Source: a virus
DNA length: 5,753 nt
Strand: one strand, 5' to 3'
Virus record (IMG/VR): IMGVR_UViG_3300045988_003325
Coordinates: 1 to 5,753 of that record
A program made the translations under genes and the position numbers. Of this stretch, positions 1 to 5,753 are shown one piece after another. Each line of letters opens with the position of its first letter. Position 1 is the first letter of the stretch. The notes below the pieces were generated by a model. The model saw only the letters and a list, made by a program, of their open reading frames with translations, searched no databases and was not told the DNA's origin.

Positions 1-662
1 ATTTTTTTTGTAACGTACCCTGCAACATATCTATATGTTTCTGGCACTGCTTGTGCTATCTGTATTTGACCCATGCCCCATATGTTTGCTAGCCATTTAC
101 TTGTGAAATATCCGTTGTGTTGTATCTTGTATAGTTGTTCTAGGTCTGTTGGTTGCCATCCATATAGTATCATATGATAATGTGGCCTAGCTGTCTGTTC
201 TCCGTACTCTCCTGCTACAAAATAGCGTAATTTGCCCCTATAAGCCTTTCTGAGCCTTTTTAAGAATTTTTGAACATCAGTATACAGCAAAGTTTGGACG
301 CTTTCAGGGCGCTTCTCTCCCGGTTTCCAGACGTATTGTACTTTTCGCATGATTTCGCCTGTTTTTACTATCATGCCTGGTACGTGATCGTCGTCATACG
401 TGAGTGTGATAAACCAAACTTCTTCTCTTGGATAATCTCGTGCTTCTAATTCTATACGTGTTGTCCAGTCCTCTCTTTGTCTTATTCTGCATCCGATGCA
501 TTGCCCGCATGGTATTAGCATGACATCTTTTCTAAACATCAAATCTTCATATTTGAGCTGTTTCCCGATTATTTTAGAAAAGCGGGCAAGTGAATACACC
601 CGCCCGCTTATGTTTTTATTTTCCGGGTTGTACAGCCTTATTAACGGCTTGTAACAACTCAT
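1..662 (-). CDS. VP4: Replication initiation protein VP4 (HUH rolling-circle endonuclease), N-terminal ~220 codons. The gene crosses the circular junction and continues at 5753->5297; in unit-genome coordinates it is 5297..5654 joined to 1..662, 339 aa.
   Basis: Minus-strand translation from ATG at 662..660 gives MSCYKPLIRLYNPENKNISGRVYSLARFSKIIGKQLKYEDLMFRKDVMLIPCGQCIGCRIRQREDW...FITLTYDDDHVPG...RYFVAGEYGEQTARPHYHMILYGW...NIWG. The frame then continues without a stop into the 143-aa track ORF MGQIQIAQAVPETYRYVAGYVTKK... CGQCIGCR, FITLTY (motif 1), PHYHMIL (HUH motif 2) and YVAGYVTKK (catalytic Tyr motif 3) are the hallmarks of Microviridae VP4/gene A proteins. SD AGGTGA lies ~9 nt upstream. 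The start codon overlaps the VP2 stop (ATGA). The ORF track missed it because it runs off the window edge. Confidence 0.9.
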   Translation of the reverse strand, partial: MSCYKPLIRLYNPENKNISGRVYSLARFSKIIGKQLKYEDLMFRKDVMLIPCGQCIGCRIRQREDWTTRIELEARDYPREEVWFITLTYDDDHVPGMIVKTGEIMRKVQYVWKPGEKRPESVQTLLYTDVQKFLKRLRKAYRGKLRYFVAGEYGEQTARPHYHMILYGWQPTDLEQLYKIQHNGYFTSKWLANIWGMGQIQIAQAVPETYRYVAGYVTKK

Positions 663-1552
663 CTTAGATAATCACCTGGCTTTCTCTTTTCTCCGTATGA
701 TCCTGTTTTGTCTTGCGGTTTCATTTCTCGGCTTTCTCCTGTTTTTGGCTTGTTTCTTCCAGCGCCGCCGGCCGCTCCTGGCACAGTGCTTTCTGTCTTT
801 TGCATTTGCCTGTAGGTTTTCAGCAAATCTTCTGTTAATTGTTTTGGGCTGCTATAGCTTCTGCTCATTTGGCTGCCTACGGCTTCTGCAAGCTGATACC
901 ATTGTGAATTGCTTTCTGACTTGCTGTAATAGCTTGTCGGCACGTTGCCATTCATCGTTGATACGCCTAGTGCGCTTGATGTTGGCATTCCCATGCTTGC
1001 GCCTGTAATTGTTGCTCCGGAGCCTCCCGGTGTGCTTGCTCCTCCGTTTGCAAATGCTAAGATAGGGTTTAACCCTGCTTTTCGCATATCTTCCACGGCG
1101 CGTTGATAGCTTGTATTGCTCATGCGTTCTTGGAAATTTCGGTTTGCTAGTGCTTCTGCACTGTTGTAACTCATTGCAGCATTTTGCTCGATGTGGTTGT
1201 AAATGCCCTGTTGGATTGCTCCTAACGTGTTATAGCCCATCTGCATTAACATGTTTTGACGGTTTGTTTTGCTCTGGAATGCGTTTTGCCCTCCTTGCCA
1301 GTTATAGAAGCGGTCTAGATACTTCATGATTTGTTCGTCGTTTGTGCCGCCTTCACTTGTTGACGAACTTGTGCCAGCGCCTTGGCTTTGGCTTTGATTC
1401 CATCCCTGGCTTTGGCTGTCTGACGTTTGCCCAAACTGACTTGCTAGTCCTTTTCCAGCTAGTGTTAACGCGCTTGTTATTACTTGTGGATTATTTGCAA
1501 ACCAGCTACCTACTGCTTTTCCGGCCGCTCCGATTGCTCCTAGTATTGACAT
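659..1552 (-). CDS. VP2: Minor capsid / DNA pilot protein VP2 (297 aa)
   Basis: ATG start at 1552. Gly/Ala-rich hydrophobic N-terminus (MSILGAIGAAGKAVGSWF...), a long Ser/Gln/Gly low-complexity linker, and the block NTSYQRAVEDMRKAGLNPILA, which matches the conserved YQR..D...AGLNP motif of gokushovirus VP2 pilot proteins (from memory). Sits immediately downstream of VP1, as in other Microviridae. Confidence 0.8.
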   Translation of the reverse strand: MSILGAIGAAGKAVGSWFANNPQVITSALTLAGKGLASQFGQTSDSQSQGWNQSQSQGAGTSSSTSEGGTNDEQIMKYLDRFYNWQGGQNAFQSKTNRQNMLMQMGYNTLGAIQQGIYNHIEQNAAMSYNSAEALANRNFQERMSNTSYQRAVEDMRKAGLNPILAFANGGASTPGGSGATITGASMGMPTSSALGVSTMNGNVPTSYYSKSESNSQWYQLAEAVGSQMSRSYSSPKQLTEDLLKTYRQMQKTESTVPGAAGGAGRNKPKTGESREMKPQDKTGSYGEKRKPGDYLR

Positions 1553-1590: not shown

Positions 1591-3237
1591 TTACAGCTTG
1601 TACAAGCCCGGTACGCTGTACAACGGCATCCGTCTTGTGGTTTTGTTTGCTACGCGGATAGCTCCGAAAAATTGCGGCTCATTCTGCACAACGAGTGTGC
1701 GTGCAATTTCGTTCTTGCCTTCTTCCATCCAGTCTTGCGATAGTGTCGGTGCGGTTGAATAATTGTCTGCGTAGTGCCAGAAATCTAACGTGCCTGTTGC
1801 GTTGCTTCGCATGAGGCCGCTTACCCGGTTTGGTTTCATTCGGTAGTCCGCCCAGGCCTCCTGATAGCCGAATGTTTCTTCGTCCGTTGCCGTGCCGGTC
1901 AACATGATTTCTTTTTTCTTTACGGGCTGTTCGCCTATATTTGCAAACTGCGGTACATAGTAGTCTAGTCTGTCTTCTCGACTCCAGAAACGTTCCAAGC
2001 CTTGCTGATAACTGCGATTGTGTCGCACACAACAGACACCAATTACAAATCCATGCTCTTCAAAAGATTTGGTAAAAGAGCTTTCGTTTATCGGCGTTAC
2101 TGACATTGCACCAGTTTCGCCCAGCGGTGACATATCGTTTGCCGCTGTCTGCACGATTTGGTTGATATTGACGTGATATCTGCCGCCGCCCAGGTATTCT
2201 GGAATCTGTATCGTTTTGTCGCTGATAGTTACATTCCACAGTGCTTGTACCTGTTCGCGGTATCTGCTGCCGCCTCGTGCGAGCGCTTCGTAGTACTGCT
2301 GTACTGCTACGGCTTTTCTTAAGTCGTTGATCGTTGCTGCGGTTACACTGCTAAGGTCTGCTTTTAGGAATGCTTCTGCGGTGTAGTTACCTCCTTCAAT
2401 TGTGCCTTTTCCTGTCAGTTTTCCCGCTTTTTCCGTGTTTGTAAAGTTCGTTGTGCCGTTTGCCGGCCACGGCTGGTTTAGGATTATTTTATCTGTTATT
2501 TTGGCGGTATCTTGGATGGTGTTATATCCAAATACCGGTGCATTACCTTCCATCGGCAGCGTTACTGCCGGCCCGCGCTGAGGATAAGGCAGACAGCTTG
2601 TGAAGTAGTCGTGAAATTTGTTTACAGGTAACAGGTTTCCGCCTTTGTACGCGTTGTTTTCTGCTTCTTGCACCCAATCTTCATTTCCAAATTCGTAGTC
2701 TACGTTTGCATCGTCTGTTTTTAACGTTGCTACGTTATCTACGTTTTCATCTCTGAAAAATTCATTCCAGATTTTTACATACGCTCTTATGGGTAGTGCG
2801 TTAATGCTAAATTCTTTTTTAATTTTGGTCGGCACTCCCATATAGTCCAGTATGGATCTTTCGTTTGGTTTTGGTGCTGCGTCCGTTCCTTTGATTTTGA
2901 TTTTCGGCACTGCGTATTCTTTTTTTGGCATCCATGGTGTTGCTTCTACTTCTCCCATGAAGTATTTGAAGTTGTCCCACAGAATTCTGTTAGGACAATA
3001 GAAATAGTAGAAGTCAATGAATGCATCGTCCATCACCGGGTATTTCGGTGTGCTCATTCGTATGATTGCTGCTGTATCCACGTTGAAGGTATCGCCCGGT
3101 AATACCTCGTCAACATAGAATGGAATCAGCTTGCCGGAATCGAACGTTGTTAAAACCGTCTGGTCTCGGTTGAACCGTGTTCGGCTCGCTTTCATTTCTG
3201 GGATTTGGTTGAAGTGCCGTTCGTTGTTTCGATTCAC
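1591..3237 (-). CDS. VP1: Major capsid protein VP1 (548 aa), gokushovirus-type; GTG start codon
   Basis: Translation MNRNNERHFNQIPEMKASRTRFNRDQTVLTTFDSGKLIPFYVDEVLPGDTFNVDT... matches the conserved N-terminal block of gokushovirus VP1 (..SRF......TFD.G.L.P.YVDEVLPGDTF..) and the size is typical (530-570 aa). The first codon is GTG (revcomp of 3235-3237). An in-frame TAA lies 6 codons upstream, so no ATG alternative exists. A perfect AGGAGG lies 7 nt upstream. Confidence 0.93.
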   Translation of the reverse strand: MNRNNERHFNQIPEMKASRTRFNRDQTVLTTFDSGKLIPFYVDEVLPGDTFNVDTAAIIRMSTPKYPVMDDAFIDFYYFYCPNRILWDNFKYFMGEVEATPWMPKKEYAVPKIKIKGTDAAPKPNERSILDYMGVPTKIKKEFSINALPIRAYVKIWNEFFRDENVDNVATLKTDDANVDYEFGNEDWVQEAENNAYKGGNLLPVNKFHDYFTSCLPYPQRGPAVTLPMEGNAPVFGYNTIQDTAKITDKIILNQPWPANGTTNFTNTEKAGKLTGKGTIEGGNYTAEAFLKADLSSVTAATINDLRKAVAVQQYYEALARGGSRYREQVQALWNVTISDKTIQIPEYLGGGRYHVNINQIVQTAANDMSPLGETGAMSVTPINESSFTKSFEEHGFVIGVCCVRHNRSYQQGLERFWSREDRLDYYVPQFANIGEQPVKKKEIMLTGTATDEETFGYQEAWADYRMKPNRVSGLMRSNATGTLDFWHYADNYSTAPTLSQDWMEEGKNEIARTLVVQNEPQFFGAIRVANKTTRRMPLYSVPGLYKL

Positions 3238-3656
3238 TCTTTTTCCTCCTTTTCTTTAGTTTTTGTTTCAGGTTCTTTTTCTACTTTTTCTTCTGCCTTT
3301 TCTTCTGCCTTTTTTTGCAGTTCTTCAAGCTTCATTGCGTTTGCTTGTGCGGTCGCAATCATGCGATGATACTCGTGAATGTTTTGCGGAAATTCGGTGA
3401 TATCCACTTCTGTTCCGTTTAGTGCTCCTTGTGACAGGCTTTTCATGAATTGCGGGTCAAAACTTGCCTTTCTGACAATGCTTTTGATGTCGCATTCGTC
3501 CGCATAGCTTTCAATTTCCTGTTGGATGTCGATTGGTTCGGTCTCTTGCAGCACTTCTTGCCCTTTTTCGTCTTTTGTCCAGACGTATTGTTTTTGAAAT
3601 TTTTCTCCTGATTTTGAAAAGAAGGGCTTTCGCCCTTCTTCATATCGTTTATTCAT
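3234..3656 (-). CDS. Hypothetical ~140-aa acidic protein with Lys/Glu-rich C-terminal tail; candidate internal scaffolding (VP3-like) protein. The track ORF extends to 3716 using a TTG.
   Basis: ATG at 3656..3654 preceded by GGGAGGG ~8 nt upstream; the longer 160-aa form starts at a TTG with no SD. The stop overlaps the VP1 GTG start (GTGA), implying translational coupling with the capsid gene. The C-terminus ELQKKAEEKAEEKVEKEPETKTKEKEEKE is encoded by a tandem nucleotide repeat (ttcttctgcctttt x2 at ~3290-3320). Size and position resemble Microviridae scaffolding proteins, but no motif was recognised. Confidence 0.55.
   Translation of the reverse strand: MNKRYEEGRKPFFSKSGEKFQKQYVWTKDEKGQEVLQETEPIDIQQEIESYADECDIKSIVRKASFDPQFMKSLSQGALNGTEVDITEFPQNIHEYHRMIATAQANAMKLEELQKKAEEKAEEKVEKEPETKTKEKEEKE
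3245..3250 (-). promoter_or_regulatory. Shine-Dalgarno AGGAGG for VP1 (7-nt spacer to GTG start)
   Basis: + strand cctcct at 3245-3250 reads AAAGGAGGAAAAAGA-GTG on the minus strand. Confidence 0.7.
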
Positions 3657-3888
3657 GCGGCTTACCCTCCCACACCTTTTCTGTGTCGTTCGTGAACGTG
3701 CCGAGCTCGTCTTCAAATACTGCTAGCTTGAAACCGGTGTAGTCCTGTGGACTCTGCCCAATGAAGGTCTTTTCGTCCTTTGCCATCACGTTGCACATGC
3801 GTGCAAAGGTTGCACTGTTCTTGCTCTCGCCTACCCATGCGTAGCACTTTGCTACACTGTCCCATACGCCAAAATATTCATGCTTCAT
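3649..3888 (-). CDS. Hypothetical protein, 79 aa, mildly acidic, Trp-rich; no recognisable family
   Basis: ATG at 3888 with AAGGAAAG ~10 nt upstream. The stop overlaps the next gene's start by 8 nt (CATGAATAA). Lies in a tightly packed same-strand gene array. Confidence 0.55.
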   Translation of the reverse strand: MKHEYFGVWDSVAKCYAWVGESKNSATFARMCNVMAKDEKTFIGQSPQDYTGFKLAVFEDELGTFTNDTEKVWEGKPHE

Positions 3889-3908
3889 GATATCTACTTT
3901 CCTTTCTT

Positions 3909-4031
3909 TTACAGCCGGATGCCACCGCGCATAGGCTTCTGGCTAAGGTTGATTGTTTTGGTTTTTCGTGCGGTTACGTTAAACATGCGGCGGTCTTTTG
4001 CGCCGTTCATCCTCTTACGATGTTGTGCCAT
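3909..4031 (-). CDS. Small basic DNA-binding protein (40 aa), analogue of the phiX174 J / gokushovirus ORF8-type DNA-condensing protein. Not in the supplied ORF track because it is too short.
   Basis: Manual minus-strand translation from ATG 4031..4029 to TAA 3911..3909 gives MAQHRKRMNGAKDRRMFNVTARKTKTINLSQKPMRGGIRL. About 12 of 40 residues are Arg/Lys. The C-terminal RGGIRL and overall pattern match my recollection of the Chlamydia-phage ORF8 small basic protein. Good SD AAGGGAG 8 nt upstream. Overlaps the end of the 74-aa gene by 17 nt. Confidence 0.65.
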   Translation of the reverse strand: MAQHRKRMNGAKDRRMFNVTARKTKTINLSQKPMRGGIRL

Positions 4032-4239
4032 TGGTATACTCCCTTCTTACAAGTTCCATTTCGATTGCGTTTGCAAAACTCTTCATTCTCCATATTTCGT
4101 CAAGCATTTTTTTTGCGTCTTCGACGTTAGATATTTTGCGAAGCATTTTGTATTCGCCATCGATTTCTTTGTATTTTCGAGTTAGCATCTCTTCAAGCGC
4201 TTCTTTGGTCTGGTCTCTTACGTTCCATGTTTTGTGCAT
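4015..4239 (-). CDS. Hypothetical protein, 74 aa, predicted all-helical and Lys/Glu-rich (possible coiled coil); VP5/C-like function is speculation only
   Basis: ATG at 4239 (the track's first M is a GTG one codon upstream). AAGGAG lies 9 nt upstream, and the preceding gene's TGA stop (4248..4246) lies just before that SD. No recognisable motif. Confidence 0.55.
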   Translation of the reverse strand: MHKTWNVRDQTKEALEEMLTRKYKEIDGEYKMLRKISNVEDAKKMLDEIWRMKSFANAIEMELVRREYTNGTTS

Positions 4240-4245
4240 CACGGT

Positions 4246-4368
4246 TCACTCCTTTTCTTTTTCGTTGATGCTATCGTGCAGCGCATGATAGATTTCGTCG
4301 AGTTTTTCCAGAATCTGCATCATGATGCGGATTGCCTGCTTGATGTCTTTAATGGAAATCAGTGCCAT
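4246..4368 (-). CDS. Hypothetical small amphipathic peptide (40 aa: MALISIKDIKQAIRIMMQILEKLDEIYHALHDSINEKEKE); the alternative 71-aa form starts at ATG 4461
   Basis: ATG at 4368 begins 1 nt after the peptidase TAA stop (TAAAATG) and is preceded by AGGGGG ~7 nt upstream. The longer form from 4461 has no SD and would overlap 92 nt of the peptidase gene in another frame. Confidence 0.45.
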   Translation of the reverse strand: MALISIKDIKQAIRIMMQILEKLDEIYHALHDSINEKEKE

Positions 4369-4369
4369 T

Positions 4370-4762
4370 TTATACCCCCTTTCTGTACTTGCTGGTTCGT
4401 ACATCAAAGTGCACCCAGCTTTTGTATACGATAATGCCGCATTCATCCGGGACGATTGCATTCAGTTCGTTGGCAATTTCTTTTGCACTCATTCCATTTA
4501 CTCGGATATCTGCTGCCATACCGCGCATATGATAGCTGTATTTTGCTCCCCCGCATTTTGTGTTCCACTCTGGTGTTCTGTATCCGCTGGTGATGATGAC
4601 CGGTTTTTCTAACTTATTTCGCAGGATGTCCAGAACACTATACAAGTAGTCGTCTATGAATACTACCGGACTGCCGTCTTTACATGCAAATTCTTTTACT
4701 TTGAAGTATTTTGCAAGCTTTACATTTCCGTCAGTTTCTACAATGTAGCTTTTAATGCTCAT
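4370..4762 (-). CDS. Peptidase M15 (M15A / Peptidase_M15_3, zinc D-Ala-D-Ala carboxypeptidase-fold cell-wall hydrolase); likely lysis enzyme. The maximal ORF extends to ATG 4867 (165 aa).
   Basis: ITSGYRTPEWNTKCGGAKYSYHMRGMAADIRVNG...SWVHFDVR contains the family signature SGYR..N...GG..S.H..G.A.D plus VHxD (the His/Asp/His zinc ligands). The internal ATG at 4762 has GAGGAAA 7 nt upstream and gives a 130-aa product of typical domain size. The upstream ATG at 4867 has no SD and adds a Lys-rich 35-aa extension. No signal peptide. Confidence 0.8.
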   Translation of the reverse strand: MSIKSYIVETDGNVKLAKYFKVKEFACKDGSPVVFIDDYLYSVLDILRNKLEKPVIITSGYRTPEWNTKCGGAKYSYHMRGMAADIRVNGMSAKEIANELNAIVPDECGIIVYKSWVHFDVRTSKYRKGV

Positions 4763-5025: not shown

Positions 5026-5120
5026 TTTTTTGTTATTTATTTACGCTTTAACGTTAAATTTTAGTACTTATCAACTTTTCCACATTGCCTACTACTACGT
5101 CTACAACAAGTTAATATTAT

Positions 5121-5190
5121 ATCGCGCGTGCGCGCGTGCGCGCTATCGCGCGTGCGCGCGTGCGCGCTATCGCGCGTGCGTGCACGTGTG
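5121..5190. repeat. GC-rich tandem repeat: the 24-nt unit ATCGCGCGTGCGCGCGTGCGCGCT occurs as two exact copies (5121-5144, 5145-5168) plus a diverged partial copy (5169-5190) ending in the palindrome CGTGCACG. Alternating purine/pyrimidine (CG/TG) tract.
   Basis: Exact copies verified by eye. About 85% GC inside a ~43% GC genome. Many self-complementary CGCGCG/GCGCGC blocks allow alternative hairpins in ssDNA or Z-DNA in dsDNA. Confidence 0.75.
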
Positions 5191-5296: not shown

Positions 5297-5753
5297 TTAA
5301 AGTGTCCCTTTTTTCTTTGTTTGTTTCTTGATTACTCTTTCTTTTGTCTTGCACTGTTCCGTAAAGTCTGCGTTTTCATACTTAAGCCTGTTTTCTGCTA
5401 TGACTGCTTCTTGTCTGTTCTGCTTAATTCTCCACAATCTTTGTGGGTTTTCAGCTTCCATCATTTTTTCATAATAACGTGGAATTTGTGCGTGTTTTCC
5501 GTTTGTGCATTGGATATAGCCTTGCTTCCATATTTCTGCTTTGTGTTCTTGGTAATAGTGGTCTCCCAGGCCTGGCTTGAGACTCATACATGCAAAAGGT
5601 TTTTGTTGCCCTAGTTCATAGTATGCGTTTGCCTTTATTCCGTCTATTTCGTACATTTTTTTTGTAACGTACCCTGCAACATATCTATATGTTTCTGGCA
5701 CTGCTTGTGCTATCTGTATTTGACCCATGCCCCATATGTTTGCTAGCCATTTA
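5297..5753 (-). CDS. VP4: Replication initiation protein VP4, C-terminal part (continuation of the gene whose start is at 662). Nt 5655-5753 duplicate nt 1-99.
   Basis: The track ORF 5297..5728 (MGQIQIAQAVPETYRYVAGYVTKKMYEIDG...) is in frame with, and contiguous to, the N-terminal part across the circular junction. It contains motif 3 YVAGYVTKK and ends at TAA 5299..5297. Confidence 0.9.
   Translation of the reverse strand, partial: KWLANIWGMGQIQIAQAVPETYRYVAGYVTKKMYEIDGIKANAYYELGQQKPFACMSLKPGLGDHYYQEHKAEIWKQGYIQCTNGKHAQIPRYYEKMMEAENPQRLWRIKQNRQEAVIAENRLKYENADFTEQCKTKERVIKKQTKKKGTL
5655..5753. repeat. Terminal redundancy: 99 nt identical to window positions 1-99 (circular genome closure; unit length 5,654 nt)
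   Basis: Exact string identity of 5655-5753 with 1-99 checked base by base. The VP4 reading frame is continuous across this junction. Confidence 0.9.

Follow-up and report, generated by a model that had tools for sequence, protein, structure and literature searches.

The minus-strand open reading frame at positions 3909..4031 of the window, the 5,753-nt stretch of viral DNA analyzed here, codes for a protein and is under strong purifying selection. It represents the VP8 (ORF8) gene of a gokushovirus, and its 40-aa product, by analogy with characterized relatives, would very probably line the capsid, contact the single-stranded DNA (ssDNA) and have a role like that of protein J of phiX174.

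The gene and its family

The first 99 nt of the window (1..99) are identical to the last (5655..5753), and the window is thus a complete circular genome with terminal redundancy and a true unit of 5,654 nt. Its nearest matches in GenBank are gokushoviruses of the human and pig gut, with approximately 80 to 86% nucleotide identity over 55 to 80% of the genome, and the virus is an uncultured gut gokushovirus. All recognizable genes of the window lie on the minus strand, as judged from Pfam, PHROG and the ORF listing. Pfam and PHROG assignments place VP1, VP2, VP3, VP4 and VP5 on the same strand as the 40-aa ORF, with the gene order VP8-VP5-VP3-VP1 and VP8 between a 75-aa accessory ORF and VP5, as follows:

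659..1552, minus strand: VP2 pilot protein
1591..3237, minus strand: VP1 major capsid protein (Pfam Phage_F, 1.4e-140)
3234..3716, minus strand: VP3 scaffold
3649..3888, minus strand: VP5 (Pfam Phage_ORF5, 5.3e-9), starting 20 nt past the VP8 stop
3909..4031, minus strand: VP8 (ORF8) coding sequence, 40 aa (phrog_10695, 8DES_E, dN/dS, intact frame in relatives)
4015..4242, minus strand: accessory ORF, 75 aa, adjoining and overlapping the VP8 start
4047..4049, minus strand: in-frame TAA, 18 nt upstream of the VP8 ATG
4246..4461, minus strand: accessory ORF, 71 aa
4370..4867, minus strand: M15 peptidase/endolysin (Peptidase_M15_3, Pfam 3e-22; phrog_894, 2.9e-41)
5297..5728, minus strand: VP4 replication initiator, 143 aa, which looks truncated at the window edge

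When the genome is circularized, VP4 is full-length and crosses the junction, with its start near 671 on the minus strand.

Several features of the genome lie outside the VP8 gene. The M15 endolysin gene is absent from the annotated features of the Chp2 and phiMH2K records and is annotated in related gut gokushovirus records; its 3' end is overlapped by the 71-aa ORF over 92 nt. Neither accessory ORF has a Pfam or PHROG family, yet the 75-aa ORF is conserved in 79/80 and the 71-aa ORF in 74/80 related loci. These relatives were taken from IMG/VR, where they were retrieved with a 27-sequence alignment that includes three cultured-phage VP8s (hereafter A1), and 79 of the 80 are not cut by a contig end. 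A perfect tandem repeat of 24 nt x 2.5, GC-rich and of alternating purines and pyrimidines (TATCGCGCGTGCGCGCGTGCGCGC), occupies 5120..5180 in the 429-nt noncoding gap that separates VP4 from the M15 peptidase gene. When folded as ssDNA, this repeat was no more stable than its shuffles (z = 0.42); it could relate to an origin, to a Z-DNA-prone sequence or to assembly.

An earlier note on this DNA, which left the strand unstated, had located the 40-aa ORF exactly: it runs over 123 nt of the minus strand from ATG to TAA and encodes MAQHRKRMNGAKDRRMFNVTARKTKTINLSQKPMRGGIRL. The strong SD described in that note is likewise present, as AAGGGAG at 4039..4045 (minus strand), within the preceding 75-aa ORF and separated by 7 nt (TATACCA) from the ATG at 4031..4029. 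The same exact motif occurs no more than 25 nt upstream of VP8 in 68/80 related loci. The in-frame TAA at 4047..4049 excludes a longer upstream start, so that 4031 is the first possible start codon. The overlap of 17 nt with the preceding gene was also correctly described, since the 75-aa ORF ends with a TAA at 4015..4017 and shares 4015..4031 (minus strand) with the VP8 gene.

The product is small and strongly basic. Lysine and arginine account for 12 of its 40 residues (30%, in agreement with the proportion given earlier), with a single acidic residue, a calculated pI of 12.0 and a mass of 4.7 kDa; its length falls within the family range of about 38 to 45 aa. A basic N-terminal and middle part is followed by a C-terminal MRGGIRL motif, which is a putative capsid anchor.

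The ORF matches phrog_10695 with an E value of 1.7e-11, residues 3 to 40 aligning with positions 2 to 39 of the 39-position profile. The same profile is matched by ORF8 of Chp2 (MRLKMARRRYRLPRRRSRRLFSRTALRMHPRNRLRRIMRGGIRF; E = 5.8e-19), by the protein of phiMH2K annotated “putative DNA binding protein; similar to phiX174 J” (E = 8e-8), by the “DNA binding protein” of Dulem virus 202 (E = 1.3e-9) and by VP8 of phiEC6098 (PDB 8DES chain E; E = 1.6e-10). The proposed similarity to gokushovirus small basic proteins is thus found, with phrog_10695 common to the ORF, Chp2 ORF8, phiMH2K and phiEC6098. When the single ORF was searched against the PDB with phmmer, the sole match was 8DES_E, a “Putative DNA binding protein,” over residues 1 to 40 on 1 to 39, at an E value that is modest when taken alone (0.0077). 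The match of the A1 profile to 8DES_E in the PDB was discounted as evidence, since 8DES_E is itself in A1 and the result is circular.

All 27 sequences of A1 share M1, R5, F17 and R35-G36-G37-I38-R39, and all end in leucine or phenylalanine. The N-terminal third keeps its basic character while its residues vary. The identity of the window VP8 to the cultured-phage proteins is 34 to 49%. The terminal RGGIRL had been attributed in the earlier note to Chlamydia-phage ORF8; Chp2 ORF8 ends in RGGIRF, and the exact RGGIRL is that of phiMH2K and phiEC6098.

Because basic peptides can inflate scores, a profile built from only the three cultured-phage VP8s was applied to the ORF and to shuffles as a control. 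The ORF scored 33.5 bits, against a maximum of 17.6 bits in 5,000 composition-preserving shuffles. With the last seven residues removed on both sides, the real score was reached by 4 of 4,996 shuffles. Pfam gave no family for the ORF (E ≤ 1) and none for the 27 aligned relatives, which indicates that Pfam is without a VP8 model. On these comparisons, the ORF is assigned as a genuine orthologue of VP8/ORF8 of Chp2, phiMH2K and phiEC6098.

The likeness to the VP8s of these three phages extends over the size class (38 to 44 aa), the basic composition, F17, the MRGGIR-L/F end and a core genome of VP1 to VP5. VP8 of phiEC6098 is more basic, with 16 lysines and arginines (PMC11281519) versus 12 in the window VP8. 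The position of the gene differs as well. It comes after VP3 in Chp2, after VP5 in phiMH2K and after VP2 in phiEC6098 (PMC7062461), whereas in the window it follows an accessory ORF and precedes VP5, upstream of VP3-VP1-VP2. The gene order of the window is the same as that of Dulem virus 202, where the equivalent ORF of 39 aa is annotated “DNA binding protein.”

The best-resolved gokushovirus VP8, that of SpV4 (PDB 9CGM), is also small and basic, at 38 aa. It has in common with the window VP8 the spacing A-R-x2-K-x2-N ... RGG-x-R-F/L but ends in RGGRRF instead of RGGIRL. The VP8 alignment gave a weak match to it with hhalign (E = 2.8e-4 over 32 columns); SpV4 VP8 had no match to phrog_10695 and was not retrieved in the A1 profile search of the PDB, the relationship being too weak for HMMER. 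The SpV4 ORF was read with genetic code 4 (NC_003438, plus strand, ending near position 686). It contains a TGA (Trp) codon and is therefore invisible to table-11 ORF finding. The reference copy of NC_003438 in the phage collection carries a single annotated feature, VP1.

Relation to phiX174 J and proposed role in the virion

The description of the product as “J-like” in the earlier note stands as a functional analogy, whereas homology to phiX174 J could not be demonstrated with Pfam or hhalign. Microvir_J (PF04726) was not matched by the ORF at E ≤ 1 or by any of the 27 aligned relatives at E ≤ 10, and hhalign of A1 against phiX174 J gave a probability of 0.3%. As a positive control, phiX174 J itself matched Microvir_J at 1.7e-16 and phrog_2354, “DNA condensation,” at 2e-28. 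With no detectable sequence homology to J, VP8 is regarded as a functional analogue and not as a demonstrable homologue.

The two proteins can be compared in several respects. phiX174 J has 38 aa and is highly basic with a hydrophobic C terminus, and the window VP8 is likewise small and basic with a C-terminal IRL. At 60 copies, the positive charge of the window VP8 would correspond to approximately 12% of 5,654 phosphates (60 x +11), against approximately 13% of 5,386 nt for J (60 x +12). The J gene (848..964) lies directly before F (from 1001) in the order D-E-J-F, whereas in the window VP5 and VP3 lie between the VP8 gene and VP1. The C termini of J and VP8 are buried in the same area of the capsid protein, although structural superposition is possible for just the last four residues (PMC11281519). 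The resemblance of VP8 to J is functional and positional; VP8 would work like J, and membership of the J family is not demonstrable. The two proteins could still be true homologues that have diverged to an extreme degree.

In the literature, VP8 is described as an Arg/Lys-rich analogue of phiX174 J (PMC11281519) and is named a conserved gokushovirus DNA-binding protein and core gene (PMC9239249, PMC7062461). SpV4 VP8 was built into the virion map for aa 9 to 38, lining the VP1 interior; near the two-fold axis, a hydrophobic pocket of VP1 encloses its C-terminal residue, and its N-terminal residues are ordered only with DNA, that is, in full capsids (PMC11281519). In phiEC6098, only the C-terminal 10 aa of VP8 are described as ordered (as cited in PMC11281519; the structure also via PMC12328618). 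The capsids in which VP8 was visualized are close relatives of that of the window, VP1 of which matches 8DES_A with an E value of 1.7e-105 and 9CGM_A with an E value of 1.8e-96. In alignment, Tyr77 of the window VP1 corresponds to Y83, a pocket residue of SpV4, and to Q86 of phiEC6098.

By analogy with these phages, about 60 copies of VP8, one per VP1 subunit, would line the inner face of the T=1 capsid. Their MRGGIR-L/F tail, which is invariant, would insert in a mostly hydrophobic VP1 pocket near the two-fold axis, with VP1 (1591..3237) as the presumed docking partner of the VP8 C terminus. The flexible N-terminal and middle part, with a net charge of about +11, would contact the packaged ssDNA and neutralize the approximately 12% of phosphates given above. 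DNA condensation by the window VP8 is suggested by the literature on its homologues, and its virion presence, copy number, VP1 docking and DNA binding are extrapolated from homologues that are 34 to 49% identical. Two database entries point away from this reading, as phrog_10695 is without a functional label and RefSeq calls Chp2 ORF8 “nonstructural.”

The way in which VP8 enters the capsid bears on how far the analogy with J would reach. SpV4 VP8 (aa 14 to 38) was also present in empty capsids, with many VP1 contacts (PMC11281519), and VP8 loading may consequently lack the coupling to DNA that is seen with J; a capsid-stabilizing role could be as important as charge neutralization. The 17-nt overlap, for its part, may serve translational coupling of the 75-aa ORF and VP8. 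There is a small chance that both features belong together in this gut gokushovirus clade, with VP8 coupled to the 75-aa ORF through the overlap, loaded before or independently of the DNA, and acting as a capsid-lining assembly factor rather than in the manner of J. It is rather improbable that VP8 is mainly an assembly or capsid-stabilizing “cement” on VP1, loaded independently of the genome, with charge neutralization as a secondary effect. The empty SpV4 capsids and their many VP1 contacts would fit such a cement, as would the finding that the most constrained part of VP8 in A1 is the capsid-anchoring C terminus. However, a basic N-terminal third whose residues vary suits nonspecific DNA binding, and the order of the SpV4 N-terminal residues in full capsids only points in the same direction. 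Moreover, the authors of the SpV4 study themselves offer the alternative that the empty capsids may have lost their DNA during purification (PMC11281519). A capsid-lining protein that contacts the ssDNA in a J-like role is the reading preferred here for the window VP8.

Conservation of the reading frame

A frame of 40 codons could by itself be open by chance, but its conservation is not explained in this way. The exact 123-nt frame from ATG to TAA is present in 79/79 untruncated relatives, which comprise 75 distinct nucleotide versions with pairwise identities of 73 to 99%. Variability was counted by codon position in codons 7 to 40, which are free of the overlap (34 columns), and variable columns number 14/34, 10/34 and 32/34 at codon positions 1, 2 and 3, respectively. 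The Nei-Gojobori dN/dS is 0.080. An internal stop occurs in none of the 75 versions, whereas the two other sense frames contain stops in 75/75. Loss of the frame among relatives, which the earlier note had named as an observation that would speak against the gene, is decisively contradicted by these data.

The surroundings of the gene are also tightly conserved. The overlap between the upstream ORF and VP8 is exactly 17 nt in 79/79 relatives that have the upstream ORF, and in 77 related loci VP8 is followed after 13 to 20 nt by a VP5 homologue. Such an arrangement would be compatible with an ORF that is mainly a translated leader or coupling device for VP5, or a ribosome relay from the 75-aa ORF, with an unimportant peptide. 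This is very improbable, because a dN/dS of 0.08 together with residues that are invariant across very distant phages shows that the amino acid sequence is selected. In addition, homologues have other places in the genome, following VP3 in Chp2 and VP5 in phiMH2K, and the homologous peptide is physically present in virions (8DES_E; PMC11281519).

The chance that the frame is open fortuitously, or that the real gene is instead a 101-aa plus-strand ORF at 3880..4185, is negligible: 40 codons may be open by chance and the 101-aa frame has an apparently low dN/dS of 0.215, but stops interrupt that frame in 15/75 relatives, its constraint is an artifact of wobble positions common to the sense frame, the recognizable genes are all on the minus strand, and the sense ORF significantly matches both its family profile and a PDB chain. 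The 101-aa ORF was rejected as a gene on these grounds. It runs opposite VP8 and the 75-aa ORF on the other strand, is of the long spurious type and could be miscalled.

Annotation of VP8 genes

A tblastn search at E ≤ 1e-3 gave 107 phage records with the gene, exclusively from microviruses, and the match covers at least 80% of the query in 104. Annotation was surveyed in a 60-record spread of these significant matches. Under the match, 15/60 records carry the label “DNA binding protein” and 32/60 have no annotation at all, which agrees with the statement in the earlier note that small basic packaging proteins are routinely missed in Microviridae annotation. Among the top-ranked records listed, few have features under the match, and these bear other labels; in MG945383.1, the feature reported there is the neighboring upstream ORF. 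Near-identical proteins (90 to 98% identity) are unnamed in metagenome collections.

The PHROG labels present a separate difficulty. The VP5 family, phrog_1670, is labeled “DNA binding protein,” whereas the VP8 family, phrog_10695, is labeled “unknown function.” With the label placed on the neighbor, pipelines based on PHROGs would give the DNA-binding annotation to VP5 and not to VP8.

The VP8 described here is a further member of an already named family and an ordinary component of the virus rather than a source of new biology. Its main value is for the quality of annotation: gokushoviruses abound in gut viromes, and VP8, one of their core virion components, is often missed in older annotations. 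The motif F-x17-RGGIR-L/F is a well-conserved short marker for locating the VP8 gene elsewhere, and with VP8 recognized, the set of structural genes in this genome is complete.
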